Shown: positions 4,354 through 48,106, counted from the stretch's first letter. The stretch is 64,000 bases of DNA from a virus (IMGVR_UViG_3300028840_002104:21819-85818); one strand, 5' to 3'. Notes: a model not told the origin generated them from the letters alone. Made by a program: numbers and translations.

Positions 4354-4363
4354 GGAATGACAC

Positions 4364-5956: not shown

Positions 5957-6234
5957 TGGATGTCTGGAATCGTTTCGGCCTAATCCGACAAGCTGACCAA
6001 AAGTATTGGACTCCCCACGGTCTTTTGATCCACGGGAATCCTCAGAAGGTCCTTGGTCTTGAGGAATACGAGATTGAGGCGTACATACTCTCTTCCCAGG
6101 CTCTTGATAAGTGGGATATCTCAGGTGTCAAGGGTCCTAGAAGTAGAGTGGGTGCTTCTCCAGGAGTACCTTCTACTGCTACAGGGAGAGACAAGGCAGC
6201 CAAGCCTTATGTGACGCAAGGAGGTTTCTTGTGA
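5956..6234 (+). CDS. Hypothetical protein
   Basis: Coupled to both neighbours (TGATG, GTGA). Confidence 0.5.
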   Translation: MDVWNRFGLIRQADQKYWTPHGLLIHGNPQKVLGLEEYEIEAYILSSQALDKWDISGVKGPRSRVGASPGVPSTATGRDKAAKPYVTQGGFL

Positions 6235-6737
6235 ACGTCACTTATCGTTTCTGGGTTTCAAATGCTGGTTTCATGGCCGAAGGACTAAGCCCTGATTTTG
6301 AGGCGCTTCATCGTGAGTCTGACGGCTTTGATCTCATAGGTTCCGCTCCGTCTATCACTGAGATTGGCGGAGGCTGGTACAAGTTCACCATTCCACAGAC
6401 AGACATGCCTATAGTAGGCGTGGTTGATGCAGATCCAGGAGACTCGAACAATCTTGACAGCAGGGATCGTTACATTCCTGTGTTCATGCATGAGGATGAC
6501 TACAATCTGGACTTGCAGCTCTCTTCGCTGAACATCTCGGCCTCTCAGATTGCAGATGCAGTTTGGCAGGAACCAATTGATGACCATGATGGGGTGTCCG
6601 GCTCTGCTGCCCAGTATCAGTCTGTTCTCCTGCGCGGTGAGTGGGAACTAGATGGCAGTACCTTGAAGCTAAAGACTCCAGAGGGCGTGACCTTCCAGGA
6701 ATTCACGATCAGTACGACAGCTCGAACGCCAACGTAA
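6231..6737 (+). CDS. Hypothetical virion-associated protein
   Basis: SD GGAGG; ITEIGGGWYKF and IADAVW motifs of the kind seen in tail-region proteins. Confidence 0.5.
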   Translation: MNVTYRFWVSNAGFMAEGLSPDFEALHRESDGFDLIGSAPSITEIGGGWYKFTIPQTDMPIVGVVDADPGDSNNLDSRDRYIPVFMHEDDYNLDLQLSSLNISASQIADAVWQEPIDDHDGVSGSAAQYQSVLLRGEWELDGSTLKLKTPEGVTFQEFTISTTARTPT

Positions 6738-6747
6738 GGAGACTCCA

Positions 6748-7782
6748 GTGTCTTTGGATATTCGTTTCTTGCGAACAAATAGCCTGGCAACTCAGGATGG
6801 TCAGGCTGGCTACAACATGCGTGGTGGTAGGTACTCTGCTGATGAGATAGTTGATGTAATTGCGGAGCTTCCCTACGAGCTGACAGGAGTTAACTTCACC
6901 TCCGCTTCTTCGAGAAACCTCAGAGGCGGAAGAGTAGGCTATCTGAACTTCAACTACGATTATGGCTATTTCAACTACTCTTGGAACTATCGACACCAGA
7001 TGTCGTGGAAGGCTCCCGGGTCCCCTGAGTTTGGACCTACTCTTGATGTCCCCCTTGATCCCTTTGATATTTCCGCACGCATAGAGCTTTACGACGGATA
7101 TGATCCTGACAAGTATCTTCTTGTCGAAGTAGCCCAAGGCGAGCTTCCTCTCCAGAACTTCTCGGATCTTCCAGTCATGCTTCTTCCGAGCATCAACAAC
7201 ATCTTCGACGACGCCACGCCCCTTGAGGCGGAAGAAGGTATGACTGACTACAGATGCGTAGTTGCTCGAAACGTAGGAGACTCCTCGTGGACAACAGCCT
7301 CCCTTTGGTTAGAGACCAACATCTCTTCAACCACGGTTTCCAATTTCTCAGGATACGCCACTGAGGGAGAGATCACTATCAACGTAGCTTCTACCATCGG
7401 CTATCCCAAGTCAGCCTACATTTTCAATCGGAACTACGGTGAGATCATGCTGTATGACTACAAGACGCCTACTTCTTTCCACGTGCCAGTCCTGGGAAGA
7501 GGCGCTCTGGGGTCAACGGTGACTGGCGGTGAATACGAGAACACCATTGACTACTACGTGCCTATTGATGTGGGAGTAGGTGGCTCCTATCCAACGGTTA
7601 CAGTTAGCAGCTATGAGGCCCGTCCTTTCGGAATTACCTTTGCCCATCCCCTCCCAAATTCTCCTCTTTCGGCTACCGTGGTCAACGGAGAATTTGTACC
7701 CATTTGGCTAGGAAGACAGATCACTCCTGGCATGTCTGAGGTCGGTAAATTGCGGTTTGATCTTATTCTGGAGGCGGCATGA
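6748..7782 (+). CDS. Putative tail/baseplate protein (paralog of 3352-4353)
   Basis: SD AAGGAG; conserved blocks shared with 3352-4353. Confidence 0.55.
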   Translation: MSLDIRFLRTNSLATQDGQAGYNMRGGRYSADEIVDVIAELPYELTGVNFTSASSRNLRGGRVGYLNFNYDYGYFNYSWNYRHQMSWKAPGSPEFGPTLDVPLDPFDISARIELYDGYDPDKYLLVEVAQGELPLQNFSDLPVMLLPSINNIFDDATPLEAEEGMTDYRCVVARNVGDSSWTTASLWLETNISSTTVSNFSGYATEGEITINVASTIGYPKSAYIFNRNYGEIMLYDYKTPTSFHVPVLGRGALGSTVTGGEYENTIDYYVPIDVGVGGSYPTVTVSSYEARPFGITFAHPLPNSPLSATVVNGEFVPIWLGRQITPGMSEVGKLRFDLILEAA

Positions 7783-8579
7783 GACGAAGCCTTAGTGGAT
7801 CTTACGGCATCTGTAGGACTAAACGCTTCAATCTTCGAGAAGGCTTTGCTGTCTGGAATACTTCCAGAACCCTCGTGGATGGCCATAAGATTATGACCTT
7901 TGGTTACTTCCAGGATGATCCTGTCAGCTTTGAGACCATGGCCAAGTGGGGATACTTTGAAAGCTTGCCTGATCCTCCAGAGATCGAACTTTTTCCCGAT
8001 GTGACAAGCTATGACAACATGCAGCTAGCTGTCTTCGGAGACTTTGGTGTTGTCATGACTATTCCTTACTACTTCTACATCCTCGGCACCAGGAGAGTTC
8101 TCCAGGTTAGGGTCTGGTGGTGCAAAGACAAAGACGATGGGCCTGATCTGGCCGATTTGGTCTTGAAGGTAAATCCTCTGGATGCTTCTGAGCTTCAGCT
8201 AGGATCAGAGCTTGCTTCATATGCGATAGCCGGTCTTACTGAGGCAACAGCGGAGTACATACCCAATGGCTTGGACATGGGCTCTATGACCACTAACAGC
8301 TACAAAGATATCTATCTCGGCTTCCATGCTCCGCCTTCGGTGCAGAGCACGGGAGAAGTATACATGAAGGTTGACTTTGAAGCAGGTATTCCGCCATCTG
8401 ACATCGGAGATGCTGTCGTTGGTGGGTCTGCTCACTATGGCGGCCAGGACGCACCAATAGATCAGATCGTTCTTAACTATGACATCATTTTGGCCGTTCA
8501 TTGTATAACTTCCCAGGAAGCAGAGAACCTCCCAGGGACGGTTACAGGCGTACCAAGCCATATTGAATGGAGTGACTAG
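7779..8579 (+). CDS. Hypothetical virion protein
   Basis: 266 aa, SD GGAGG, ATGA overlap. Confidence 0.5.
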   Translation: MRRSLSGSYGICRTKRFNLREGFAVWNTSRTLVDGHKIMTFGYFQDDPVSFETMAKWGYFESLPDPPEIELFPDVTSYDNMQLAVFGDFGVVMTIPYYFYILGTRRVLQVRVWWCKDKDDGPDLADLVLKVNPLDASELQLGSELASYAIAGLTEATAEYIPNGLDMGSMTTNSYKDIYLGFHAPPSVQSTGEVYMKVDFEAGIPPSDIGDAVVGGSAHYGGQDAPIDQIVLNYDIILAVHCITSQEAENLPGTVTGVPSHIEWSD

Positions 8580-9500
8580 ATGAGCTTTCCTACGGACTCT
8601 CACGACGACTTTGTGACCATGGTTGACCATAGGCTTACTCCTGTGGATAACTCCGAGAGCTACGAGATACCAGAGGAGCCCTCTGATCCTACGGTCTATA
8701 CGGAAGAGCGACCTACCGAAGGGACCCTCTTTGTCACAGGCTCAATCACCTTCACGGAAGTTTCATACGAGCCTACTCAGAGCGGCGAGTTCTACGTGAA
8801 CTACAATACGGGACAGATCCTCTTCCATGAGGACGATAGAACCAAGGTAGTCACCGTTGTTTACCAAGGCGTGGGAAGTGCTTCTAAGGCGGTAGACTGG
8901 AACAACGTCTACACATCCATCCAGAATACTCAGGATGAGGTAACCGTCCTTAGAGACCTTCTGCTGGCAGGTAAGGTAGAGGCCACAGATCCTGTTTCTA
9001 AGAAGGTCCAGGTCTACGGAGGCACTTTCTATCCCACAGCCAAGATCCCTGCCACCTTGACGGACACATTGGTAGACTTCGCGTCTCCCCCGTACCTTCT
9101 CAGCGCCATCACGGTTTCCTATTGGAGACCCATTCTCTTGGTTGTGGACCCTGACGGCGACCTTGAGGTAATCGAGGGAACCATTTCCGCGACTGAGACA
9201 GACTTTAGCTTTCCTGGCACCTTTGAGCTGGCCTACAGGAACTATCTTGTGATCTGTGAGATCCACGTCCGAGACAACGGCACAGGCGCTCCAGGCACGA
9301 TCATAGATATCACGGACGACAAGATCTTTGATAGGCGGCCTTTGGTTGCTTCAGGCGCTCCTATTGAAGGAGTGGCTCCTCCTGCGAATTCCGTGGTTTT
9401 GTGGCCCTCTTCGGAGACAGTTCCCACAGGATGGCTCAGAATAGGCACAGAGACGCTCTCCCTCGGAGGGGTCGAGCACTTCTACATCAAGAGAACGTAA
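8580..9500 (+). CDS. Putative tail fibre-related protein
   Basis: GEFYVNYNTG repeat-like segment; C-terminal VVLW...VPTGW resembles a tail-collar motif; last gene of the structural block. Confidence 0.5.
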   Translation: MSFPTDSHDDFVTMVDHRLTPVDNSESYEIPEEPSDPTVYTEERPTEGTLFVTGSITFTEVSYEPTQSGEFYVNYNTGQILFHEDDRTKVVTVVYQGVGSASKAVDWNNVYTSIQNTQDEVTVLRDLLLAGKVEATDPVSKKVQVYGGTFYPTAKIPATLTDTLVDFASPPYLLSAITVSYWRPILLVVDPDGDLEVIEGTISATETDFSFPGTFELAYRNYLVICEIHVRDNGTGAPGTIIDITDDKIFDRRPLVASGAPIEGVAPPANSVVLWPSSETVPTGWLRIGTETLSLGGVEHFYIKRT

Positions 9501-9520
9501 AAAATACTACGTTTATACCC

Positions 9521-9550
9521 TTGACCCCTGCTTTCCAGCCGTGATACAAT
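9521..9550 (+). promoter_or_regulatory. sigma70-type promoter for the replication module
   Basis: TTGACC-N18-TACAAT with TGn extended -10. Confidence 0.65.
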
Positions 9551-9551
9551 G

Positions 9552-9568
9552 CTATTGACAGTCAATAG
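9552..9568. promoter_or_regulatory. Palindromic operator candidate
   Basis: CTATTGAC-A-GTCAATAG perfect inverted repeat over the predicted start site. Confidence 0.5.
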
Positions 9569-9595
9569 TTTGAAAGAATGGTCACGGAGGTTAGC

Positions 9596-11053
9596 ATGAA
9601 AGAGGACCGGTCCCCCTTCCTGGCCGTAGACTGTAGAGTCCACCTTTGCAACCTACGCCCGGAGGTTTTTGAAGCCATTCAGACGTCTCTGACGTTCAAA
9701 AATCCGAAGTATGAGCAGACTAGGAAGTTCAGCCCCTACAACTTCATCTCTCCCAAGATCCCTCGGAACATCAAACTGTGGCGCAAGGTGGGAGAGGTGC
9801 TCTCTGTTCCCAGGGGATACAGTTTTGAGACTGTGGGGGGTTTTGACTTCCTTCCGAAGACGTTTCAGCAGTCGCGGAATAACTTTGCCTACGGAACCCA
9901 TCTTGCTCGTTTTCCAAAGCCTCACTATACATTAACAGGTATACAGGAGAGAGCCCTCGAAGCCTTTGTGCGGGGAGAGCCTAAGCGCCCTTTCAATACA
10001 TATCTCTTTGTGATGCCCACAGGTACAGGGAAGACGGTCACAGCGGCTGTGGCGGCGGCCAAGACACGAGAGAGAACACTCATCCTAGTCCATAACCAGT
10101 TGATAGCGAGCCAGTGGCGGAGAGACCTGGCGGGCTGCTTCAATCTGGCCAACAAAGACATTGGTTTGGTGAGGCAGAACACAATTCGTCTGGGAGATCA
10201 GTTCACCATTGCTTTTCTCCAGACTCTCTTCAAGCGCCCAAAGGTTTGGCAGGATATCAGGTATTCCTTTGGGTGCATGATCTTTGATGAATGTCACATC
10301 GTACCCGCCAGAACGTTCTATGACATCGCGGATGATTGCCCTTCCCTTTATCGAATTGGGCTCACCGCGACACCGACTCGGAATGACGGTCTTCATGACA
10401 TCATGTTTAATGTCTTTGGTCAACCATTCTACGACCTCTCTACAGACAGCAACGTGGAGTCAGAAGTTTCCATTCCAGTCTCAGACGTGATTGTCAGGCA
10501 TACAAACTTTGTACCTGATGTTCCAAAAGGAATGCCTCTAGACATCTCAACAACTGTCAAAGAGCAGGCTTTCTGTGAAGATCGAAACAGGCAGATCGTT
10601 GCGGATGTAAAGAAAGAGGTTTCAGAGGGTCATAGCTGTCTGGTTATCTGTCTGAGAAAGGCCCACGTGGAGATATTGATCCGAATGCTTGCGGATAGAA
10701 TGGTCCTCGCTCTTCCGCTTACAGGCAGCCTCACGAAGAAGAAGGTTAGGGACTATGAGGCCAAGCTTTTGGATAGAAGCTGTCGCGTTGCTGTAGCCAC
10801 GTCTCAGTTCGTGAAGCTTGGAACCTCAATCAATCCTTTGGATCGTCTCTTCATTGCTTGTGTCGTGGCTAATGAGAAAGACCTTCTCCAGCTTGCAGGA
10901 AGAATCAGGCGGAAAGCAGACTCTAAGAATGATGCTGTAATTTATGATTACGTTGACTCTAAGGTTCGAATGCTGTGGAACCATTTCCGCAAGCGGGCCA
11001 AAGTCTACAAGAAGATGGGCGTTGAAAGGTTCCGAAAAGCCGAGTTTGTGTGA
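9596..11053 (+). CDS. Superfamily 2 DExH DNA helicase (UvsW/Rad25-like)
   Basis: Walker A MPTGTGKT, DECH, LTATP, QLAGRIRR, IYDYVD; SD GGAGG before ATG 9596. Confidence 0.9.
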   Translation: MKEDRSPFLAVDCRVHLCNLRPEVFEAIQTSLTFKNPKYEQTRKFSPYNFISPKIPRNIKLWRKVGEVLSVPRGYSFETVGGFDFLPKTFQQSRNNFAYGTHLARFPKPHYTLTGIQERALEAFVRGEPKRPFNTYLFVMPTGTGKTVTAAVAAAKTRERTLILVHNQLIASQWRRDLAGCFNLANKDIGLVRQNTIRLGDQFTIAFLQTLFKRPKVWQDIRYSFGCMIFDECHIVPARTFYDIADDCPSLYRIGLTATPTRNDGLHDIMFNVFGQPFYDLSTDSNVESEVSIPVSDVIVRHTNFVPDVPKGMPLDISTTVKEQAFCEDRNRQIVADVKKEVSEGHSCLVICLRKAHVEILIRMLADRMVLALPLTGSLTKKKVRDYEAKLLDRSCRVAVATSQFVKLGTSINPLDRLFIACVVANEKDLLQLAGRIRRKADSKNDAVIYDYVDSKVRMLWNHFRKRAKVYKKMGVERFRKAEFV

Positions 11054-11061
11054 GGTGTGCT

Positions 11062-11259
11062 ATGGAGAAGTGTCCTAACTGCGGGGCTTTCGTGAGAAGC
11101 TCTGTAACAAGAATAGCTAGCGCAAAGTTTCAACTGCTGGTCAGGATTGATTTGCTTCGAGACAGGATGTCAGAAGAAGAGTTCAGGCTTCTGGAGAATG
11201 ATATTTTAGAGATTGTTGACGAAGGCGATCACAGGAGACGTTACCCGCACATTGAATGA
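11062..11259 (+). CDS. Small hypothetical protein (CxxC)
   Basis: SD GAGGTG; CPNCG. Confidence 0.5.
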   Translation: MEKCPNCGAFVRSSVTRIASAKFQLLVRIDLLRDRMSEEEFRLLENDILEIVDEGDHRRRYPHIE

Positions 11260-11271
11260 AGGGAGAACTTA

Positions 11272-11556
11272 ATGTACGGACTACCTGAGCTTGTAGAAGG
11301 CGAGTGTAATGCGATTTTGGAGATTGCTGATGACTACGGAGATAACAGCGCAACTATTCGCTGTCAGCTTGAGCCAGAGCATGAAGGCCCACACAAGGAG
11401 GTGTTTCAGCGAGACGGAATGCCCGTAGTCATTACCTGGCACGGAGATGAGCGAAAGGTCTGCTCGAAGTGTAAAGCAAAGGTGTTTGATTGGAACATAG
11501 ACACCTCTGGAGGTAAGTTTAAAGCCAAGTGTCCTGAATGTGACGCAGTTCAGTAG
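11272..11556 (+). CDS. Hypothetical Zn-ribbon protein
   Basis: C.L...H.GPH plus CSKC/CPEC. Confidence 0.55.
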   Translation: MYGLPELVEGECNAILEIADDYGDNSATIRCQLEPEHEGPHKEVFQRDGMPVVITWHGDERKVCSKCKAKVFDWNIDTSGGKFKAKCPECDAVQ

Positions 11557-11568
11557 AAGGGAGAAAAG

Positions 11569-12009
11569 ATGGGTAAGGTGTCGTTTTCTGGGAAGAAGTC
11601 AGACGGTCCTCCCAAACTAGCAGTCTTGGAGACAAAGGCAAAGAGGTATGGCCAGATCCAAGAACAGATCAATACGCTGGAAAAGGAGAAAGATGTCCTG
11701 AAGGCTGAGATGAAGCCTCTGGTCAAAGATCTAGGCGTTCCTACCAAGAAAGGCGGAAGTAAGCTCACCATTGGTGGTTGGATTCCTGAACGCCGCGCTA
11801 AGGTCGAGGTATTCCTGAAAGAAGGTGCGGAAAAGAAGCTGGAAGAAGAAGGCATCCTTGATCTAGTGACTACTCGCAAGCTAGACAAGAAGAAGCTAGA
11901 AGCCGCGCACAAAGAGGGACTCATAGACGATGATCTCCTCTTGGCTGTGGTTGATGAAAAGGTTACTTACAGCTTCTACTGTACCAAGGTTAAGGATAGT
12001 GAAAGCTGA
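11569..12009 (+). CDS. Hypothetical coiled-coil phage protein
   Basis: SD GGGAG; Lys/Glu-rich. Confidence 0.55.
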   Translation: MGKVSFSGKKSDGPPKLAVLETKAKRYGQIQEQINTLEKEKDVLKAEMKPLVKDLGVPTKKGGSKLTIGGWIPERRAKVEVFLKEGAEKKLEEEGILDLVTTRKLDKKKLEAAHKEGLIDDDLLLAVVDEKVTYSFYCTKVKDSES

Positions 12010-12784
12010 CAATCTGAAGAAGGTCAGAAAGCTTCCAGACGGATGGCTTGAGTATGTGGTTGATTGCGATGAATGCAAGGCCCTGGCCCCTCTTCCGCTT
12101 TTTCGGAAAGGCGTTTTGGGAAGCGTGTTCTTTGTGTTCTATCCTTTCTTCTACTCTCAAGACAGCGAGCTTCTGAAGAGATACATTTCACAGGAGATCC
12201 TTGGTATCTCTATCTTGATGTGTTTTCCTTTCTGCGCTCCTCTAGATAAACCGAAGATTTCAAAGCCGCATTCCAGAACGTGTCTTCCGAAGTTTCAGGA
12301 GTTAGTAGATCACTATGTTCCCGAAGCTATAGTCACGGTTGGTTCGGATTGTTTCAGTCACCTTTGCTGTGAGGGTTCTAGCCCTCCTGATATGAGGTTA
12401 CTTGCTGGCACATTTGTCTATCCCGACCAGTTTGCCCTTCAGTCAGGAAGAGTTCCTGTGGGAGTTGTCAGAAGTCCTACGAAGCTTATTTCAGAAGGCC
12501 ACCCTCTTGAGGAGGTGCTAGGCATATTCAGATCTCAGATTGGTCACATGAACGCATGGTTTGAGCGGGAGAACATTCCGACAGAGTTAAGAGAAAGGAG
12601 AATTGTTGCGGAACCTAATGACTCCAAAGAGAACCAGGAAGAGACACGTACAGCTTCCAAGCGGGAGAGAGATTCCAGTTTTCTCTATCGGCGCTCTAGC
12701 AGCAAGGATAAAGAGAAAGGCGCACACAATCAGGTGGTGGATTCGAGAAGGAATAGTTCCTCCTCCGGTCCTCGATTTAGGTGA
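11999..12784 (+). CDS. Degenerate uracil-DNA glycosylase-family protein
   Basis: CxxC, FC.P....P....C.P.F...V....PEAIVTVG pattern of family-4 UDG C-terminal half; GEAPG and HPAA motifs absent. Confidence 0.45.
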   Translation: MKADNLKKVRKLPDGWLEYVVDCDECKALAPLPLFRKGVLGSVFFVFYPFFYSQDSELLKRYISQEILGISILMCFPFCAPLDKPKISKPHSRTCLPKFQELVDHYVPEAIVTVGSDCFSHLCCEGSSPPDMRLLAGTFVYPDQFALQSGRVPVGVVRSPTKLISEGHPLEEVLGIFRSQIGHMNAWFERENIPTELRERRIVAEPNDSKENQEETRTASKRERDSSFLYRRSSSKDKEKGAHNQVVDSRRNSSSSGPRFR

Positions 12785-36666: not shown

Positions 36667-37290
36667 ATGCCAGCAAAGAAAGTTGCAAAGGTGTTAGGTC
36701 CTGAAGTTTCTAACGGTGCCAAGGTTGCTATTGAGTCAGGAATTCCATTTACGCTCAGAGCAAGGGTGCGGGGTGTTTCTCCAGGTCTCATTATGCATGC
36801 TTGGAACTGTGAGGCAATAGCTAATCTTCCAGGCAAAGGCGCAAAGAAGAAGGATGATCTTGAGACTTATGTTCGGCGTGATGACGAAGGTTATCTTTGC
36901 ATTCCAGGTGAGTATTTTAGGGGCTCTATGATTAATGCGGGCAGATCCAGAAAAGATCCCAGATCTTCTAGGAAATCCATGATGGATCTTTTGAAGGCGG
37001 CAGTTATTCCTCTGACCTATTTGGCTCCTATTAGTCCTAAGTCTAAGGAGTGGCCTAAAGTGCATAAGTGCCGAGCGGTCATTCAGCGTTCGGCTATTAC
37101 TAGAGAACGTCCCTGGTGGCCTGAAGGGTGGGAAGCTCAGATAGACCTTCAGTGTATTATGCCTGAATACGTGAGTCCCACGGTGTTTCACGACATCTTG
37201 GTAGATGCGGGAAGGTTTGTGGGTGTGGCTGACTATCGTCCTACTTACGGTCGTTTTCAGGTTATTCACAGCGAGATTCTTGAGGACTAG
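36667..37290 (+). CDS. Stand-alone RAMP/Cas7-like RNA-binding protein
   Basis: beta1 RVRGVSPGLIMH; IPGEYFRGSM (cf. RAMP IPGSSLKG); C-terminal G-loop GRFVGVADYRPTYGRF; SD AAAGGA. Confidence 0.75.
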   Translation: MPAKKVAKVLGPEVSNGAKVAIESGIPFTLRARVRGVSPGLIMHAWNCEAIANLPGKGAKKKDDLETYVRRDDEGYLCIPGEYFRGSMINAGRSRKDPRSSRKSMMDLLKAAVIPLTYLAPISPKSKEWPKVHKCRAVIQRSAITRERPWWPEGWEAQIDLQCIMPEYVSPTVFHDILVDAGRFVGVADYRPTYGRFQVIHSEILED

Positions 37291-41178: not shown

Positions 41179-41529
41179 ATGCGTGGTGAGAGAGAGGACG
41201 ACGGCTTTGCAACAGGCGTTGTTGTCGTGATTTTGATTGTTGTGATCGGAGTAGCTCTTTTTGGAAGCGGTTATTGGTTAGCAGCAAGGCACTATAATCG
41301 AAGTCTGGATAAGATCAGAGCTTGGTATCTTGCAGACCTCAACAAGACTCCTATGAGAGTCCTAATGCCGGAAGATCTAGACGTGGACGATCAGATCAGA
41401 TTGGCCACAGCCATTCTCAACAGCGCACTTCAAGTTCAAGGATCTGTGGTTGATGTCACGGTCACGCCTCCAGAGATTGTGCGAGGTGTTGAAAAAGTAG
41501 AAGCTGCGGCGAAAGGGATGGTAGAATGA
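41179..41529 (+). CDS. Membrane protein
   Basis: SD AGGAGG; one N-terminal TM helix. Confidence 0.6.
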   Translation: MRGEREDDGFATGVVVVILIVVIGVALFGSGYWLAARHYNRSLDKIRAWYLADLNKTPMRVLMPEDLDVDDQIRLATAILNSALQVQGSVVDVTVTPPEIVRGVEKVEAAAKGMVE

Positions 41530-41840
41530 AGACAAAGACAACGTTGATCGGACCAAACGATGGCCTACCTACCTGGGTTACGTTCAAAACGCTTTCGGGT
41601 AGAGAGATCGAAACCATCGGTCCCGCAGGAGAGATCAAGCTCCAGGAGGAAGATCGAACCTTTGTTCGTTGTCGCGGAGAAAAGGTCATGCAGGTTCTTC
41701 AGATAGATGAAGACAAGGTGACTTATGAAGACCTTTTCAAGGAAGCGAAGCGGCAAAACCTGAAGTGGATTGTCTTTGGCAATCCTGCGGCGGTCCCAAG
41801 AGCAGGAGAAATCAAGATACTGGAACTGATAGAAGAGTGA
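41526..41840 (+). CDS. Hypothetical protein
   Basis: ATGA overlap. Confidence 0.55.
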   Translation: MKTKTTLIGPNDGLPTWVTFKTLSGREIETIGPAGEIKLQEEDRTFVRCRGEKVMQVLQIDEDKVTYEDLFKEAKRQNLKWIVFGNPAAVPRAGEIKILELIEE

Positions 41841-41932
41841 CACCTCCTCCCCTTACCGGGGAGCCCGGCGAGACCGGCAATCTGGAATTGTGCTTGCGTG
41901 GTTTTGGATTGCTGGTCTCTTTTTATTCTGAG

Positions 41933-41948
41933 AAGCTTCGCGAAGCTT
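41933..41948. repeat. Perfect 16-bp palindrome
   Basis: AAGCTTCGCGAAGCTT abutting the tandem repeat. Confidence 0.8.
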
Positions 41949-42118
41949 TGGCCTGTGGCTGGCCTGTGTCAGGCCCTGGCAGGCCCTGTGGCCTGTGGCT
42001 GGCCTGTGTCAGGCCCTGGCAGGCCCTGTGGCCTGTGGCTGGCCTGTGTCAGGCCCTGGCAGGCCCTGTGGCCTGTGGCTGGCCTGTGTCAGGCCCTGGC
42101 AGGCCCTGTGGCCTGTGG
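41949..42118. repeat. Perfect 40-bp tandem repeat, 4.25 copies
   Basis: Unit TGGCCTGTGGCTGGCCTGTGTCAGGCCCTGGCAGGCCCTG, four GGCC per unit. Confidence 0.95.
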
Positions 42119-42243
42119 TTACTCTTGTAACCTGACTACGTTTGTTACTATTCCCAGATTTTGCCTAAAATGCTTAAATACGAGACTTACGCCGATTTGA
42201 CCTGTTTTGACAGTAATGATTATGTCTAGTGACAGTACCCCTA

Positions 42244-42272
42244 TTGACAAATATGCATATACTCTGTATAAT
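42244..42272 (+). promoter_or_regulatory. Perfect-consensus sigma70 promoter (probable early promoter)
   Basis: TTGACA-N17-TATAAT. Confidence 0.9.
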
Positions 42273-42279
42273 GTGGTAT

Positions 42280-42648
42280 GCTGTCACTATGACAGAACAC
42301 AGTATTACACTGTGTTAACATTCTTTCACAACATAGGCCACAATGGCCAATCCTCATGATCTCTGGTCATGCTACTGCTAAACCAGTAAAGTCCAGTATG
42401 ACATGAGATGATAGGTTAGGCTTCCCTCTGTCTACTTTCTGAGGTATCCTCCGGTTCTCCCACAGGTACACAGATACCTAAGTAAGCACACCAGAGCAAA
42501 ACGTTGTCCTTGACGTTGAGAGTAGACTCCTAACACGGATCTTTGACAATTTTGAGTAGTGAGACTGAACCTATACTGTGGTGTATGGCAAGATACACAC
42601 GCGGTTGAAGCTAAGGTAAAGGAACTACATGGTGGTGTATATCCACTA
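42280..42648 (+). ncRNA. Long structured leader or ncRNA candidate
   Basis: Stems AACACAGT/ACTGTGTT, GTCTACTTTC/GAGAGTAGAC, AGGTATC/GATACCT, GTGTAT/ATACAC; no SD-led ORF. Confidence 0.4.
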
Positions 42649-43120
42649 GTTGACACCAGACCAGCCCACTCTTTTGAAGGAGGTTGGTCATGGCTAGAAC
42701 CTTTTCACAATTGCTTGACAGTGAAAAAACGGCTTTTCTTGAGAAAGCTTACCGTTCTAAGGATAGAGTTCTTGACCCGCAAGATTACGCACAGGCTATG
42801 TATGTTCAGGATGCCGTCAACATGAATGGCGTGGTGGCATCCTTGGCAGAGCTTATGCCTAAGATTCGTGAGGAAGCGTCGGTCAGAGCGGAAGTCTTCA
42901 CACTAACCTTAGGTGATGATGATGTTTATGGATTTCCCATAACTGAATTCATTAACAGGCATCCGATAGTGAGACTCTTCGCGGAGACCCTGTACCAAAA
43001 AAGTCACTTTCCGATGGGCGATAATTATCACTTCGCATATGAGATCTGCTCGGAACGAATGAAAGAAAGTTCCTAGCTAGTGAGATTGAAGGAGAAAGAG
43101 TGGGCTGTTCTGGTGTCAAC
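42649..43120 (+). repeat. Cassette 1 inverted repeat (42649-42674 / 43095-43120)
   Basis: GTTGACACCAGACCAGCCCACTCTTT / AAAGAGTGGGCTGTTCTGGTGTCAAC; 26 nt, 1 C-U. Confidence 0.9.
42690..43076 (+). CDS. Hypothetical early protein (cassette 1)
   Basis: AGGAGGTTGGTC-ATG. Confidence 0.7.
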   Translation: MARTFSQLLDSEKTAFLEKAYRSKDRVLDPQDYAQAMYVQDAVNMNGVVASLAELMPKIREEASVRAEVFTLTLGDDDVYGFPITEFINRHPIVRLFAETLYQKSHFPMGDNYHFAYEICSERMKESS

Positions 43121-43121
43121 A

Positions 43122-43961
43122 TGCGTCAGTATCCAATCGGCCCGCCCTCTCAAAGGAGGTTGGTCATGGATACTAACAGACTTATCGCTCTGGTAGAGAC
43201 AGTCGAGGATATTCCTGATTGTTGGTTTGACTCTAATGAGTATGTATCCAGCAAGCAGGCAGACAACTTCTTCGCCCTTAACTCGGAGAGTAAGATTGTC
43301 AACGGTGACCAGTTCTTTGTCACCGCTTGTCAAGTCGAGGATGTTCTCAGAGATAAGGCTCCTCATTTGGTTGAAAGCTTTCACCAGTTGATGCTTTACC
43401 TGGAAGATCGTGTCGTTGATGCGGTTGATACAGCAGAAGCTAATGCTGAAGAAGCCGACGATAAGACATATCAACGGAACAATTATCGAGAGATGGCAGA
43501 TTTAGGTGAGTACTTGCAAGAAAGGTACGATGAGCTGGAAGGCGAGTGTGCAGAGCTGGAAGAGGAGAACAAAGATCTTCGAGAACAGCTTGAGATGGAG
43601 GAAAGAGTTTCGCACAGAGACTCTGAGACCTTCAAGGTGCTGAAGAAAACAGGTGCCTGTTGGGAAGGCATAATGTTTGCCGATGGGTACTCAGATCCCA
43701 ACGAAGCATGGAAAGCCTGCGAGAATCCAGACTGGATGGATTGGTTTTTACAGGTCGTTATGCTTGACGGCAGTTCTGTGAAAAGAAGCTCGGATTATGA
43801 AGTCTTCAAGGTGGGCTATGACAAGCTTATCCGCTTTGGTGGCGTGACTCAGAAGCAGAAACTTGAGTATATCAGGGAATGTTTTCCGAACGTTCCAGAT
43901 TTCTCTCATTTGCTGAAGTGAGAGAATAGGTCAGAGGGCGTGCCGCTTGGATACTGACGTA
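43122..43961 (+). repeat. Cassette 2 inverted repeat (43122-43150 / 43933-43961)
   Basis: TGCGTCAGTATCCAATCGGCCCGCCCTCT / AGAGGGCGTGCCGCTTGGATACTGACGTA; 29 nt, 1 G-U, 2 C-U. Confidence 0.9.
43166..43921 (+). CDS. Hypothetical acidic early protein (cassette 2)
   Basis: AGGAGGTTGGTC-ATG; coiled coil, then L...GAC.EG...AW..C..PDWM.W.L motif. Confidence 0.7.
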   Translation: MDTNRLIALVETVEDIPDCWFDSNEYVSSKQADNFFALNSESKIVNGDQFFVTACQVEDVLRDKAPHLVESFHQLMLYLEDRVVDAVDTAEANAEEADDKTYQRNNYREMADLGEYLQERYDELEGECAELEEENKDLREQLEMEERVSHRDSETFKVLKKTGACWEGIMFADGYSDPNEAWKACENPDWMDWFLQVVMLDGSSVKRSSDYEVFKVGYDKLIRFGGVTQKQKLEYIRECFPNVPDFSHLLK

Positions 43962-44798
43962 CTCTCAGCCTTGGAAATGGCGGTCAATAGGCACAGGTTT
44001 GATCTCAACTAGAAAGGTTGGAACTATGCCTAGAAAGAAAAACGTAAAGACTACGCCCCAAACCGAAACCAAGAAGGAAACCTCGACCAAAAAGAGGCGT
44101 CCTCGCAAGACTCCGGCTGATGTAAAGGAAGATCCTAAAAAGGCTGCAAAGGCAAAGCCTGAAGACTCCAAGAAGGCGAAGCCTGAAGATGCCAAGGATA
44201 AGCCTGCCATCAGCTACGAACCCAAAGAGGTTCACATGGTTGGAGCCAAGAAAAGCCCTTGGGCTGCTCTGTGGTTCTACGCGAAGTCTCACGTGATGGT
44301 CTGCTCAGGATTTCCAATGCCCTGGTGGACTGAAAAGAGGCCCAACACGCTAGAGTCGGAAGTCAATCTTCTCTCAGGCACTCTTGACCAGATTGTGACA
44401 TTGAGAATTCAATGGCATATGTTTGGAAACAAGGTAACCACGTATCTGCAAGCCAATGTCAGAGACGGTGCAGGCAAGCCCGAGCTTTTGGCTAAGGCGG
44501 CGGAACCTGTGAGTGCGATGGACACGGCAAAGGCTATTCCTGTTCTTCTTAAGATGGGAGAAGAGGCGGGCTTCAAGATCTCTGAGATCAAGAAAGGCGT
44601 TGAAAGGCTCGATAAGATCCGCGAGCGATTGGATTTGATCCTGATGAACGCTCAGCCGCTCATCTCTATGCAAAAGCTCCTAAGAGCCAAGCAAGATCCT
44701 TACATGGAGATTGCTGAAGAGGAGAAAGAGAGCGCCTAGCGTGATTAGGACTAATTGACCAACAGTAGCTTATTGATCGCCATTTCCACGGCTGAGAG
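43962..44798 (+). repeat. Cassette 3 inverted repeat (43962-43992 / 44768-44798)
   Basis: CTCTCAGCCTTGGAAATGGCGGTCAATAGGC / GCTTATTGATCGCCATTTCCACGGCTGAGAG; 31 nt, 2 G-U, 1 C-U. Confidence 0.9.
44026..44739 (+). CDS. Hypothetical early protein with Lys-rich N-terminus (cassette 3)
   Basis: SD AGAAAGG; KKAKPED repeats. Confidence 0.7.
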   Translation: MPRKKNVKTTPQTETKKETSTKKRRPRKTPADVKEDPKKAAKAKPEDSKKAKPEDAKDKPAISYEPKEVHMVGAKKSPWAALWFYAKSHVMVCSGFPMPWWTEKRPNTLESEVNLLSGTLDQIVTLRIQWHMFGNKVTTYLQANVRDGAGKPELLAKAAEPVSAMDTAKAIPVLLKMGEEAGFKISEIKKGVERLDKIRERLDLILMNAQPLISMQKLLRAKQDPYMEIAEEEKESA

Positions 44799-44850
44799 AG
44801 CAACTAGCCTTGACCTAGCCGCCTTTCACTGAATGAATGGAGGTTCGGTC

Positions 44851-45270
44851 ATGGAAGCTGCAACAGATACGACGAAGATTCGTCTTGAGAATGACAATTT
44901 GAGGAAACGCTGTGAGGATATGGGCGTTGTCCTATCCTTAGCCGCCTCAATTGCCGACAAGAGGCACCACGACGGAGAAGGCTTTCTGGGCCTTGTCCTG
45001 CGAGAGGTGTCAGAGACAGGCTTGAAAGACGTTTTGGTACTCACTCGCGGAATATGTTTCTTCTGTGAGGATCATCCCCAAAGGGTTGTAGGCTTGATCC
45101 ATGAAGTAGCGAATTACAGCGACTTCTCGGAAAGCATTGATCCTTACGGAGAGCATGAGATGGGCGTGTTCGAGTGGTATGGTCGGAAATGCTTCTGGAA
45201 GGTAGACTTTCAGGGTGGGCATGATGGCATCAACCGAATACTTACCATCCTATTCGCAGAGGAGTACTAG
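44851..45270 (+). CDS. DUF3768-like protein (cassette 4)
   Basis: ND.LR, V.TRGI, DF....DPYGEH..G.F......FWK.D, R.LTI..AEEY. Confidence 0.75.
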   Translation: MEAATDTTKIRLENDNLRKRCEDMGVVLSLAASIADKRHHDGEGFLGLVLREVSETGLKDVLVLTRGICFFCEDHPQRVVGLIHEVANYSDFSESIDPYGEHEMGVFEWYGRKCFWKVDFQGGHDGINRILTILFAEEY

Positions 45271-45271
45271 A

Positions 45272-45505
45272 ATGGCGTGGAAAAGCGATCATCCCCTGTT
45301 TAGAAGTCTCACAGATGAAGAAGAGTTGGAAATGAGAGTTTGGGCGCGTGACAATTACGAGCTGCTATCTGAGATTAACGCTCTTTGGCATCCTGTAGTC
45401 CGAGAAGAGTGTAATCGGATGAACGATGAACATCTCAGAGATAGCACTAATTCGTTTCTGGCACAGATTGAATACATAGCCAATGAAGCGAGAGAAGAAG
45501 CCTGA
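45272..45505 (+). CDS. Small hypothetical protein (cassette 4)
   Basis: SD GAGGAG; LFR.L...EE...R.WAR.NY......WHPVVR.EC..MN. Confidence 0.65.
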   Translation: MAWKSDHPLFRSLTDEEELEMRVWARDNYELLSEINALWHPVVREECNRMNDEHLRDSTNSFLAQIEYIANEAREEA

Positions 45506-45548
45506 GTGAAGGAATGGTGAAGGGCGGCTAGTTCAAGGCTAGTTGTGG

Positions 45549-45962
45549 CAAGATTAGGTCCGATCTGGCCTGCCTCTAGATTGGAGGTTTGGTCATGAGC
45601 ATGACAGTATTCGATTGTCGAATGAGTCCAGTTTTCCGTCTTCCATTGGAACAAGCTCCTGGCGCGGAAGAAGCGATAGAGAGGCTTGACCTTGAGGATG
45701 ATTGTATGGTTGATTTCGATGAGATTGTCTGCGGTTGGGCTGAACACAACGCGGAGCTTGAAAAGTGGCTCCATGATTGGTGGCGTGCCGATGAGGTTAT
45801 CTCTGACGGTCAAATCGTCGAAATCAAAGGCCGTAGGTATGTGGAAATTGCCATGGGCATTGTTCAGATTCCGCCCTGGCGTCCAGATATCGCGAAAGCC
45901 TTGAGGTTGAAGGCCCCTAACTGACAGTATGAAGGAGGCAGGCCAGCTCGGATCTAATCTTG
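45549..45962 (+). repeat. Cassette 5 inverted repeat (45549-45576 / 45935-45962)
   Basis: CAAGATTAGGTCCGATCTGGCCTGCCTC / GAGGCAGGCCAGCTCGGATCTAATCTTG; 28 nt, 1 G-U, 1 C-U. Confidence 0.9.
45595..45924 (+). CDS. Hypothetical early protein (cassette 5)
   Basis: GGAGGTTTGGTC-ATG. Confidence 0.7.
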   Translation: MSMTVFDCRMSPVFRLPLEQAPGAEEAIERLDLEDDCMVDFDEIVCGWAEHNAELEKWLHDWWRADEVISDGQIVEIKGRRYVEIAMGIVQIPPWRPDIAKALRLKAPN

Positions 45963-46504
45963 TGTCAGAACCGACTCAGCCTATCCAGCTAGTTTGGAGG
46001 TTTGGTCATGGATAGTCTAGTCAAGGCACAAATGAGATACGTTCTTTTTCTGAGCCCTTTGGCGCGTTCCTTAGAAGCGTCAGGAGATGCTGCACTCAAG
46101 CTCTCGGCTGCTTATGGTCGTGATGAGCCAAACATGGAGGCTGAGTTTGTGGCAGAGGCGCTAATGTTCTACGTTCAGGCTATCGCTTGTATAGATGTTA
46201 GAGAGGATATTCTGAATGATGGAACGAATGACGCGCTTGTTGAAAAGGATTATGAGCACAGAAATCGGTTGATGGCCAAGATGTATGATAGTTTCCGAAT
46301 CTACCTCGATAGGTTCAAGAGGCAGAAGGAAGGCCACAGAGACTATGGTATAAAGGAGTTGGCTGAAGCTTTCGTGCAGGCGGCGAAAGGCGGAGGCTTT
46401 GACTCTGCTCACCGTTTGGTAACTATGGCTTCAGAAGAGATCTTTGGTGGTCACGTTCGGATATAAAGCATGAGTTGCTGGATGGGCTGATTCGGTTCTG
46501 ACAC
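45962..46504 (+). repeat. Cassette 6 inverted repeat (45962-45989 / 46477-46504)
   Basis: GTGTCAGAACCGACTCAGCCTATCCAGC / GCTGGATGGGCTGATTCGGTTCTGACAC; 28 nt, 1 G-U, 1 C-U. Confidence 0.9.
46008..46466 (+). CDS. Hypothetical early protein (cassette 6)
   Basis: GGAGGTTTGGTC-ATG. Confidence 0.7.
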   Translation: MDSLVKAQMRYVLFLSPLARSLEASGDAALKLSAAYGRDEPNMEAEFVAEALMFYVQAIACIDVREDILNDGTNDALVEKDYEHRNRLMAKMYDSFRIYLDRFKRQKEGHRDYGIKELAEAFVQAAKGGGFDSAHRLVTMASEEIFGGHVRI

Positions 46505-46544
46505 TCTGCCAAGAGATTTCACGGGTTTTGGTCCCCATGACCAA

Positions 46545-46627
46545 GGCAGGCGGAGAACATCTCAACCGTTATACTTAGAGAGTTCGGCCAATTTTCGGAC
46601 ACGTTCTCCGTCTGCCACCTCCTATTT
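46545..46627 (+). terminator. Stem closing the early transcript
   Basis: GGCAGGCGGAGAAC / GTTCTCCGTCTGCC (14 bp) then ACCTCCTATTT. Confidence 0.5.
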
Positions 46628-46640
46628 GTATAGGTTCCTC

Positions 46641-46669
46641 TTGACATTGACATCAGGATAGGTTACATT
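46641..46669 (+). promoter_or_regulatory. sigma70-type promoter
   Basis: TTGACA-N17-TACATT. Confidence 0.6.
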
Positions 46670-46728
46670 GGGTGTAGATAGTGTCAAACGTTGGCACTGC
46701 GGCATACACCCTTTCTAGTAGGATGATT

Positions 46729-46761
46729 GGGCGGCCTTCACGGGTCGCCCTTTCGTCTTTT
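46729..46761 (+). terminator. Intrinsic terminator / attenuator hairpin
   Basis: GGGCGGCC-TTCACG-GGTCGCCC followed by TTTCGTCTTTT. Confidence 0.6.
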
Positions 46762-46770
46762 GGAGGTCCT

Positions 46771-47034
46771 ATGAAAGTCGAAGTTGAGATAGATGAAGAG
46801 TTACTTGAGCAGGCGCGGGGATATCTGAAGAAGCTTAGAGAGGTAGACGAAGGTAAGTTTGCTGAGCAGGAAAAGATTCTTGGTCAAAAAGTGTCATTCG
46901 CTCTACTGTCAAGGCTATCAGGTACTTTCGCATCGCTAGGCTTGGAAATCACCAAACAGGTGGATGCTGATTTAGGCGAAAAGGCCGAAAGGCGTTTCTT
47001 TCCAACGCTATTAAAGCGTAAGAAGGATACTTGA
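46771..47034 (+). CDS. Small protein, possible RHH-type N-terminus
   Basis: SD GGAGG; MKVEVEIDEELLEQAR. Confidence 0.55.
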   Translation: MKVEVEIDEELLEQARGYLKKLREVDEGKFAEQEKILGQKVSFALLSRLSGTFASLGLEITKQVDADLGEKAERRFFPTLLKRKKDT

Positions 47035-47059
47035 CAGTTCTTTCCATGTCTGCTAGAAT
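47031..47059 (+). promoter_or_regulatory. sigma70-type promoter of the ArdC-like gene
   Basis: TTGACA-N17-TAGAAT with TGn. Confidence 0.8.
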
Positions 47060-47101
47060 GTTACTGTCAGATGAAATCTGAACCAAGAGAGGAGGCCGAA
47101 A

Positions 47102-48106
47102 ATGGGGAACTCGGTCTATGACATCGTTTACGAGAGAATAGTCCAGAAACTTGAGGAAGGTGTTGTTCCGTGGCAGAAGCCGTGGGCAGGTTGCAAACCC
47201 CCCGCCAGTTTGGTCAGGAAGACCCCCTACAGGGGAATCAACGTTGTCCTGCTTGCCATGTCTGGCCAGTCGTCGCCTTGGTGGTTGACCTACAAGGATT
47301 GTAGACAGCGCCTGGGTGGGCGGATCAAAGATGGCCAGTACAACAAGTGGTCAATGGTAGTCTTCTGGAAACCTCGCTTGAAGGTCAATGGCAAATGGCT
47401 GAATGATAAGCAGTTTGCCGCCTTCAATCGGTCGTCCATCGGAGATAACGATGAGGTTGAAAGCGTTCCACTACTCAGGTACTACCGAGTTTGGAACCTA
47501 TCTCAGTGTGAGGGTATCCCTGAAGACAAGATCCCTGAAGAGGTAGGCAAAGATGGTGAGCCTCTGGATCTCTGTGAAGAGATCGTTGATGGTATGCCTT
47601 GCCCTCCTGCGATAAAGCTCTCTGATGTAGGTAGAGCTTTCTATCGTGGAGGTATGTTCGATGAGGTGTCCCTTCCACGTCCTCGATACTTTGAGAACAA
47701 GGAAGCTTACTACGTGACCCTCTTTCACGAATTGGCTCATGCAACTGGCCACGAGAAGCGGCTAGCGCGGAAGAAGGCTGCGGCTGATAGTCGATTGGTT
47801 GGCTCCTACAGTCAAGAAGAGCTGGTGGCGGAAATGACTGCCTGCTTTCTCTGCTCTGAAGTGGGCATCGAATCGACCTTTGATAACTCAGCGGCTTACA
47901 TTAGCGGCTGGCTTGAGTCCTTCGACGGAGATAGAAAGATGCTGGTGTTTGCAGGTCATGCGGCACAGAAGGCGGCAGATTGGATTATGAACCGCATTCC
48001 AGATGAAAAGGTTCTTGATCTGATAGGCGGCAAAAGTGCAGGTGTGACAGGGAAAGCGTGCTATACTGAAGATGTAGATAGAGCAGCATTCGCCAATGTC
48101 AATTAA
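47102..48106 (+). CDS. ardC: ArdC-like antirestriction protein (ssDNA-binding domain + zincin-like domain)
   Basis: LE.GV.PWQKPW, YRGIN, W.TY, Y.VWN..Q, A.Y, TLFHELAHATGH..RL, Y..EELVAE, SAAYI..WL. Confidence 0.88.
   Translation: MGNSVYDIVYERIVQKLEEGVVPWQKPWAGCKPPASLVRKTPYRGINVVLLAMSGQSSPWWLTYKDCRQRLGGRIKDGQYNKWSMVVFWKPRLKVNGKWLNDKQFAAFNRSSIGDNDEVESVPLLRYYRVWNLSQCEGIPEDKIPEEVGKDGEPLDLCEEIVDGMPCPPAIKLSDVGRAFYRGGMFDEVSLPRPRYFENKEAYYVTLFHELAHATGHEKRLARKKAAADSRLVGSYSQEELVAEMTACFLCSEVGIESTFDNSAAYISGWLESFDGDRKMLVFAGHAAQKAADWIMNRIPDEKVLDLIGGKSAGVTGKACYTEDVDRAAFANVN

Follow-up and report, generated by a model that had tools for sequence, protein, structure and literature searches.

Six abutting long-range helices that each enclose an early gene of an uncultured phage: candidate processing stalks for protein-coding messages

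In bacterial rrn operons, the leader and trailer sequences of 16S and 23S rRNA pair over long distances to form stalks, several in series on one transcript, and RNase III cleaves these flanking duplexes (PMC8708148). Each stalk loops out 0.4-3 kb of RNA through a helix of more than two turns, and the units are released co-transcriptionally. The same enzyme processes the early mRNA of phage T7 at the sites R0.3 to R1.3, of which R1.1 has become the model substrate (PMC8708148, PMC3867540). There, the host polymerase makes a polycistronic early transcript from strong promoters, with one site per gene pair, and irregularities in the T7 helices steer the enzyme towards single-strand cuts, which leave protective structures behind. 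The idealised substrate of Escherichia coli RNase III is a helix of 22 bp, or two turns; mismatches in the target site restrict the enzyme to one strand, and single-strand cuts can leave stabilising 3' hairpins (PMC3867540). The PeSL (promoter-early stem-loop) cassettes of T4-type phages, in turn, are standard frames placed round small early genes that are unrelated, non-essential and located in a plastic part of the genome; the DNA unit, which carries a promoter and a local terminator, recurs in near-identical copies that recombine among themselves (Arbiol et al. 2010, PMC2839356). Finally, the 5' and 3' UTRs pair in the protein-coding icaR mRNA of S. aureus and are cut by RNase III, an enzyme to which the paper gives extensive treatment (PMC3868564).

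Here, we describe six neighbouring early gene cassettes, each lying between two complementary flanks, in the 85,818-bp genome of an uncultured marine-sediment phage. Coordinates (Table 1) are those of the analysed window, a stretch of 64,000 nucleotides from this genome (IMGVR_UViG_3300028840_002104:21819-85818). An earlier note on this DNA had reported six consecutive cassettes, each closed by its own inverted repeat, and all six arm pairs were recovered where it had placed them. With G.U pairs allowed, stems 1-6 measure 27, 29, 31, 32, 30 and 28 bp and close loops of 360-780 nt. The spacing between successive stems is 1, 0, 1-2, 1-3 and -1 nt; in other words, the stems abut almost perfectly, as had been claimed. 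Each stem encloses one ribosome site and one gene, with the exception of cassette 4, where the two ORFs noted earlier are indeed present. The arms are wholly non-coding and fill every intergenic gap: the 5' arm ends 3-9 nt upstream of GGAGG (in cassette 3, 33 nt before the ATG), and the 3' arm begins 9-28 nt downstream of the stop codon. The perfect sigma70 promoter described upstream of the array was also found; it is closely preceded by a terminator-like hairpin (41871-41918) and by a tandem repeat of 40 bp x 4.2. At the junctions between cassettes, the + strand carries neither promoter-like sites nor terminators, and the lone weak promoter match (9/12, at 44395) falls inside the cassette 3 ORF. 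The structured tail behind cassette 6, which precedes the next promoter (46641), is a candidate for the transcript end.

Table 1. Features of the cassette array and its surroundings, in window coordinates.
Feature	Coordinates	Strand	Remarks
Early promoter TTGACA-17-TATAAT (12/12)	42244..42272	+	sigma70 consensus match
Leader, about 370 nt, moderately structured (z -2.3), no convincing ORF	42279..42648	+	no Rfam match
Stem 1, 5' arm, C.U mismatch at 42661	42649..42675	+	
Cassette 1 gene, 128 aa, no known family	42690..43076	+	start region GGAGGTTGGTCATG at 42679
Stem 1, 3' arm	43094..43120	+	duplex -46.4 kcal/mol
Stem 2, 5' arm, U.C and C.U mismatches	43122..43150	+	
Cassette 2 gene, 251 aa, coiled coil	43166..43921	+	no relative among 5.8 billion proteins
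Stem 2, 3' arm	43933..43961	+	duplex -49.2 kcal/mol
Stem 3, 5' arm, U.C mismatch and two G.U	43962..43992	+	
Cassette 3 gene, 237 aa, lysine-rich N-terminus	44026..44739	+	diverged start region AAAGGTTGGAACTATG
Stem 3, 3' arm	44768..44798	+	duplex -53.3 kcal/mol
Stem 4, 5' arm, C.U mismatch	44800..44831	+	
Cassette 4 first gene, 139 aa, DUF3768	44851..45270	+	PF12599, E 5e-12
Cassette 4 second gene, 77 aa, unknown	45272..45505	+	
Stem 4, 3' arm	45515..45546	+	duplex -55.6 kcal/mol
Stem 5, 5' arm, U.C mismatch	45548..45577	+	
Cassette 5 gene, 109 aa, unknown	45595..45924	+	
Stem 5, 3' arm	45934..45963	+	duplex -54.2 kcal/mol
Stem 6, 5' arm, C.U mismatch	45962..45989	+	
Cassette 6 gene, 152 aa, unknown	46008..46466	+	
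Stem 6, 3' arm	46477..46504	+	duplex -51.5 kcal/mol
Structured tail of the unit (z -4.0)	46510..46640	+	start-region-like remnant as small hairpin, then 14-bp hairpin

A scan of both strands of the whole genome (85,818 bp) returned these six inverted repeats and nothing comparable; the runner-up repeats had 22-nt arms with 3 mismatches, and no further copy of any arm was found elsewhere in the genome. Thirty local shuffles of the genome gave 0-2 repeats each at the same threshold, and these were never clustered. Six abutting helices are far beyond chance expectation. Two candidate extra stems further downstream (46711-46730/48099-48118 and 48128-48143/49157-49172) were no better than chance chains in other loci and were excluded from the array.

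Formally, a gene between inverted repeats of 26-31 nt is arranged like an invertible or mobile DNA segment, and the cargo of unrelated ORFans resembles that of cassette arrays. The repeats might thus work on DNA, through inversion, cassette exchange or transposition, as in Hin/Gin, shufflons, integron cassettes or mobile units with terminal inverted repeats. The mismatches within the arms, however, tell against this. Read on the + strand, the core arms contain 12 non-Watson-Crick positions, namely five G.U and seven C.U or U.C, and A.C or purine-purine pairs account for 0 of the 12. By the symmetry of duplex DNA, A.C and purine-purine pairs would be expected as often as G.U and C.U. A spectrum limited to G.U and C.U/U.C on the + strand therefore means that selection acts on the sense-strand RNA, not on the DNA duplex. 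Moreover, the longest perfect Watson-Crick run in the stems is at most 13 bp, which is short for homologous recombination, since perfect runs longer than this are needed for the process to be efficient. Because the six pairs differ in sequence, they have no single enzyme site in common, and gaps of 0-3 nt between stems leave no space for target-site duplications. Neither a tyrosine nor a serine recombinase is encoded by the phage (PF00239 and PF00589 were searched), and in place of the one shared site of an invertible segment we found only a weak core. Likewise, there is no integrase, the two arms are separated by the gene and so do not resemble an integron attC site, which is a local imperfect palindrome at the 3' end of its cassette, and the target-site duplications and transposase-linked repeats of MITEs or mobile insertion cassettes are missing. 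The phage was found in only two sequencing runs, both of DNA and none of RNA; they show one orientation, with no variants or strand-changing joints, in contigs that are identical and perhaps from one data set. DNA inversion, which the earlier note had named as the alternative, thus finds no footing in the recombinase searches or the assembly contigs, and we regard any DNA-level role as very improbable.

As to how distinct the six pairs are, the claim that they differ in sequence holds in so far as they are mutually orthogonal, but they are not unrelated. The likeness among the 5' arms is above chance (p about 0.005), and a C.U mismatch sits roughly at the centre of each stem, within a weakly shared core, CCGA-Y-C..RGCC. 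Five cassettes also have a common start region, GGAGGTT(N)GGTCATG, which is absent from the rest of the genome. To judge from these sequences, the shared core and the array-only start region, placed round unrelated cargo, constitute what appears to be a standard frame kept by compensatory change. The matrix of duplex energies gives -46 to -56 kcal/mol for cognate arms versus -9 to -29 kcal/mol for non-cognate arms, and a 3' arm pairs weakly with the adjoining next 5' arm (-10 to -23 kcal/mol), so that the predicted avoidance of cross-pairing is borne out. When cassettes were folded singly, each was closed by its own stem. When the entire 4.4-kb transcript was folded, five of the six stems were present in the minimum-energy structure and stem 4 was displaced by other pairings; this agrees with the beads-on-a-string fold proposed earlier. 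The arms, in short, form thermodynamically dominant and mutually orthogonal helices in a common frame round unrelated cargo. Pairing over 360-780 nt must nevertheless compete with ribosomes and local folds.

Based on these results, we propose, with a probability of roughly 0.55, that the six repeats are helices of one early transcript that starts at the sigma70 promoter at 42244, and that they serve as rRNA-style stalks cut by host RNase III. Each helix would join the sequence ahead of a ribosome site to the sequence behind the stop codon, and since it spans from one flank to the other, each gene would have its own loop, with the helices standing side by side. The double-strand-specific enzyme would most likely cleave each helix around its midpoint, just as it cleaves the 16S and 23S stalks. 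This would free six individual messages, each with its 5' and 3' ends still joined by the inner 13-21 bp. Such a clamp may keep exonucleases and 5'-end-dependent RNase E away from the message ends, and it would keep the stop codon beside the ribosome site of the same gene and uncouple the gene from its neighbours. With 27-32 bp and one or two mismatches, the helices exceed the 22-bp, two-turn criterion for E. coli RNase III, although the enzyme of E. coli may not be that of the host. Bacterial promoters and Shine-Dalgarno sequences indicate that the host is a bacterium, and the phage genome itself contains no gene for RNase III. To our knowledge, RNase III has not been described as responding to a C.U mismatch in a conserved core; the mismatch could be the mark for a different enzyme, or for no enzyme at all.

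The structural evidence for RNA helices also fits a reading in which they form but stay uncut, as clamps or insulators within a polycistronic message. In this role, they could stop 3' exonucleases and scanning by RNase E, shelter intergenic RNA from Rho, prevent misfolding across genes, or promote ribosome re-initiation by holding the stop codon beside its own ribosome site. In line with this, 9-28 nt separate the stop codon from the 3' arm and 3-9 nt separate the ribosome site from the 5' arm, so that both lie at the inner end of the helix, and the central mismatch could be an antideterminant that weakens RNase III (PMC3867540). However, regular helices of 27-32 bp are generic substrates of bacterial RNase III, from which one mismatch is unlikely to protect them (PMC3867540), and the abutment within 0-3 nt is better explained by the release of units than by insulation. 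We therefore consider uncut helices rather unlikely.

The same abutment means that central cuts would free linkers of defined size, each combining the outer halves of a 3' arm and of the 5' arm that follows it. This raises the question of whether the by-product is the purpose, with linkers of 25-30 nt or short dsRNAs acting as regulators or as decoys against host RNA-sensing defence. Strict abutment would indeed yield such linkers, but the six differ in sequence and have no evident target, nothing downstream needs them, and the frame is built round translation signals; we give this idea very little weight. Cutting would also leave both ends of a unit side by side in the helix, and in archaeal pre-rRNA, paired ends held in this way are circularised. 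The earlier note had entertained circles, in which ligation of the cut ends turns each gene into a circular RNA. The ends left by RNase III have a 5'-phosphate and a 3'-OH with a 2-nt stagger, and we know of no case in bacteria in which such staggered ends are a ligation substrate. Given that the host signals are bacterial, that the phage has no gene for RtcB or an RNA ligase, and that nothing in the sequence requires circles, circularisation seems scarcely credible.

Returning to the proposed cut stalks, we compared the array with the systems above. Unlike the rRNA stalks, its loops are protein-coding messages with ribosome sites and contain no stable structural RNA, and a Rfam search of 41500-47500 gave no family. 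Six stalks stand in a row, 0-3 nt apart, with C.U in a shared core, and the cutting is what we infer from the likeness. As in T7, the predicted sites lie between the cistrons of an early transcript from a host-type promoter. The T7 sites, however, are local intergenic hairpins, so that each T7 message keeps only a 3' hairpin, whereas in the array the two halves of a site flank the whole gene and both message ends would therefore be clamped together. No local hairpin with an internal loop of the T7 type was found, local pairing of the arms being far weaker than cognate pairing. The icaR message differs in being a single gene; its 3' UTR reportedly pairs with and masks the Shine-Dalgarno region and so represses translation, while in the array the helix does not include the ribosome site, which remains free. 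In contrast to PeSL cassettes, the array has one promoter, no terminator for each gene, and private arms that would not recombine. In a literature search conducted largely outside the subscription journals, we found no published description of gene-enclosing helices in phage operons.

Next, we looked for relatives. When the 5-kb region was compared by blastn with 50,697 phage records, there was no match, and nothing was found in IMG/VR with single queries of the cassette 2 protein, the major capsid protein (MCP) and DpdA. No stem arrays were seen in relatives of ArdC (29 loci, 0.43 Mb) or of DpdA (80 loci, 1.33 Mb); a four-member stem chain in one locus (L024) was AT-rich noise within ORFs and was discarded. 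The array is also absent from the whole genomes of the two closest relatives, G001 and G002 (MCP 54-56% identical). In G001, the nearest relative, each small early gene, including a homologue of the DUF3768 gene, has its own upstream unit of terminator hairpin, promoter and leader, which is PeSL-like. By this comparison, per-gene messages seem to be the goal in the lineage.

A search of IMG/VR with the start-region motif returned mostly single chance matches. One of the matches, L216, has gene-enclosing stems: it is a fragment of an unrelated phage with three such cassettes, the cargo of which has no relatives in IMG/VR. In a near-identical contig, two substitutions fall within an arm and both still pair as G.U; since the close JGI relatives of L216 have nearly identical stems, these two are the only informative substitutions. 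We tentatively suggest, as a possibility we hold with some doubt, that unrelated phage lineages use a general 'expression socket', in which a private long-range helix and a standard start region turn any insert into an autonomous, nuclease-released and end-clamped message; in the present array, the C.U core may be the recognition mark of the enzyme. If this is true, the socket would be a post-transcriptional counterpart of the promoter-terminator (PeSL) cassettes. If the helices are stalks, phages would have transferred the rRNA solution of looping out, cutting and keeping the ends paired to protein-coding genes, and many small accessory genes could be expressed from one promoter as independent and stable messages. 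Annotation of phage early regions, in which anti-defence genes are concentrated, would then also gain a new class of signal. The C.U-marked core offers a specific, testable hypothesis on nuclease site choice, and a compact orthogonal part for synthetic operons might be derived from the array, which already holds six helices of equal strength that do not cross-pair.

The cargo proteins are mutually unrelated. Those of cassette 2, cassette 3 and the first gene of cassette 4 gave only self-matches in large protein collections, the cassette 3 protein had no relative in 1.8 billion representatives, and sequence searches of the PDB and the ESM Atlas returned nothing usable for the cargo. With related frames round unrelated cargo, it is plausible on sequence grounds that the genes are swappable modules, as the earlier note had supposed. 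The neighbours in this early region include ArdC and a DUF3768 protein.

All six arm pairs described in the earlier note were recovered at the positions it named. With G.U pairs allowed, stems 1-6 measure 27, 29, 31, 32, 30 and 28 bp. A scan of the whole genome on both strands found no further comparable inverted repeats beyond these six, and shuffled genomes searched at the same threshold gave 0-2 repeats, which were scattered. The helices abut, as had been claimed, with spacings of -1 to 3 nt, and the arms lie entirely within non-coding DNA. GGAGG is located 3-9 nt downstream of the 5' arm end (in cassette 3, the ATG is 33 nt downstream of the arm), and 9-28 nt separate the stop codon from the start of the 3' arm. 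Both ORFs ascribed to cassette 4 are present, as is the perfect sigma70 promoter proposed upstream. The six-stem feature is real and strongly non-random.

We also folded the transcript. Each cassette folded alone was closed by its own stem, with 26-30 of the 27-32 expected pairs in the minimum-energy structure, and the fold of the whole transcript (4,368 nt) retained five of the six stems, in agreement with the suggested beads-on-a-string arrangement. Duplex energies were -46 to -56 kcal/mol for cognate arms and only -9 to -29 kcal/mol for every one of the 30 non-cognate combinations. The arms are therefore strong, alike in strength and mutually orthogonal, in line with the avoidance of cross-pairing that had been proposed.

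Read on the + strand, the core arms contain 12 non-Watson-Crick positions, five of them G.U and seven C.U or U.C; A.C, purine-purine, C.C and U.U are absent from these 12. Selection on duplex DNA is blind to the strand, so that A.C would be as frequent as G.U, and purine-purine as frequent as pyrimidine-pyrimidine. The spectrum therefore points to the sense single strand as the target of selection; for a phage with a double-stranded DNA genome, that strand is the transcript. The array is almost certainly an RNA-level design. The alternative raised in the earlier note, DNA inversion of the cassettes, is unlikely given this strand asymmetry and a phage genome that encodes no tyrosine or serine recombinase. 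The cassettes have one orientation in the assembled contigs. The longest perfect Watson-Crick run in the stems is ≤13 bp.

The six arm pairs had been described as different in sequence. This holds in that they are mutually orthogonal, but they are not unrelated. In all six helices a C.U or U.C mismatch lies 9-16 bp in from the outer end, with a second one in stem 2. The context of the mismatch is alike in five of the six, roughly 5'-CC(R)GA-Y-C(N)NRGCC, and the six 5' arms resemble one another more than do segments that were shuffled or drawn at random from the genome (p about 0.005). A start region common to five cassettes, GGAGGTT(N)GGTCATG, is absent elsewhere in the genome, and cassette 3 has a diverged version of it. 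Two of these details, the central C.U mismatch in the shared core and the standard start region, are particular to this phage. None of the seven cargo proteins is related to another; DUF3768 is the only known family among them, represented by a single protein, and the three that were tested have no relatives in large collections. Roughly half of the arm positions differ between frames (stem plus start region), with complementarity maintained within each frame. Related frames with unrelated cargo and maintained complementarity form the pattern expected of compensatory evolution of a duplicated socket, and the maintained pairing argues for selection on pairing.

Bacterial RNase III cuts helices longer than its idealised 22-bp, two-turn substrate, mismatches in the target site can limit it to cutting one strand, and 3'-end hairpins left by single-strand cleavage can act as stability determinants (PMC3867540). 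During transcription it cleaves the duplexes on either side of 16S and 23S rRNA, and T7 early mRNA is likewise matured by it (PMC8708148). Processing is the best supported reading of the array: we infer central cuts in the helices, which would release six messages whose ends would remain paired through the inner 13-21 bp. The inner end of each helix brings a gene's stop codon near its own ribosome site, which would also favour re-initiation. The array would represent processing stalks, or intercistronic RNase III sites, carried over to phage protein genes. Since RNase III domains, dsRNA-binding domains, RtcB and RNA ligase are all missing from the proteins that the phage encodes, any enzyme would be the host's, and the circularised messages considered in the earlier note are without support. 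The nearest published systems are rRNA stalks, T7 RNase III sites, the promoter-early stem-loop (PeSL) cassettes of T4-type phages and the 5'-3' UTR pairing of icaR mRNA. The literature searched, which lacked most subscription journals, yielded no account of phage operons with helices enclosing genes, and an older description is possible.

The collections searched contained no close relatives of the phage. Two IMG/VR records have capsid proteins 54-56% identical and DpdA about 40% identical to its own, and the stem array, which the earlier note had suggested seeking in related phages, is absent from both. The complete one (IMGVR_UViG_3300017991_000072) has at least eight small early genes at 4100-12300, each preceded by a repeated unit consisting of a terminator hairpin CCCCCAGAGAAAAAAATTCTCTGGGGG, a TTGAC-TATAAT promoter and a C-rich leader before AGGAGG. 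These units resemble PeSL cassettes (PMC2839356), and one of them contains a DUF3768 homologue of the first gene of cassette 4, at 10045-10413. Similar cargo is thus carried in per-gene transcription units in this relative, the nearest complete one, and, as we read it, in per-gene processing units in the array phage. A motif search also identified a GC-rich, unrelated phage fragment (IMGVR_UViG_3300025325_001470), in which three successive small genes at 5294-6448 are each enclosed by a separate long-range inverted repeat, of 33, 28 and 35 nt in turn; the core CTGAACGT is common to stems A and B. A nearly identical JGI contig carries three substitutions relative to this fragment over 1.3 kb; two of them fall in one arm and keep both pairs as G.U. 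This evidence, though small, agrees with that from the array. Separately, a DpdA-bearing IMG/VR contig has a 28-bp long-range helix (7317-7344/7900-7927), with only G.U exceptions, that encloses some 550 nt containing no ORF on the + strand and may be a large structured RNA.

The window spans bases 21819-85818 of the virus record (85,818 bp), which has direct terminal repeats and is rated complete, with all genes on the + strand. They include those for terminase, portal, major capsid and tape-measure proteins, DnaB-like and other helicases, a family A DNA polymerase, a glycosyltransferase, a DpdA-like transglycosylase and an ArdC-like anti-restriction protein. A 207-aa protein (36667-37290), proposed from sequence alone to be RAMP/Cas7-like, matched nothing in Pfam at E up to 0.1. 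The whole stretch is present in two DNA runs, labelled sediment metagenome and seawater metagenome, whose 85.6-kb contigs are identical, with the tandem repeat as the sole break.

Features surrounding the array
Feature	Position	Strand	Remark
Tandem repeat, perfect, 40 bp x 4.2 copies	41949-42118		Between the preceding operon's terminator and the early promoter; break point of public assemblies
Perfect promoter TTGACA-17-TATAAT	42244-42272	+	Downstream of terminator-like hairpin and tandem repeat
Tail directly after stem 6	46505-46640		GGGTTTTGGTCcccATG, similar to shared start region, folding as small hairpin UUGGUC/GACCAA; 14-bp hairpin next
Promoter (10/12) and leader	46641-46770		Hairpin in 5' leader
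GC-rich terminator-like hairpin with T tract	46729-46760		Directly upstream of 87-aa ORF with weak VapB-like N-terminus
Weaker long-range pairing, 20 bp	46711-46730/48099-48118		Would enclose 87-aa ORF and ArdC
Weaker long-range pairing, 16 bp	48128-48143/49157-49172		Would enclose next 285-aa ORF

The tail 3' of stem 6 is strongly structured (z -4.0) and ends before the next promoter; it could represent a seventh socket that has decayed, or else the terminator of the unit. The hairpin in the leader that follows could be an attenuator. The two weaker pairings downstream, a possible continuation of the layout, are separated by a 9-nt gap, and chains as good as these arise by chance at other loci.
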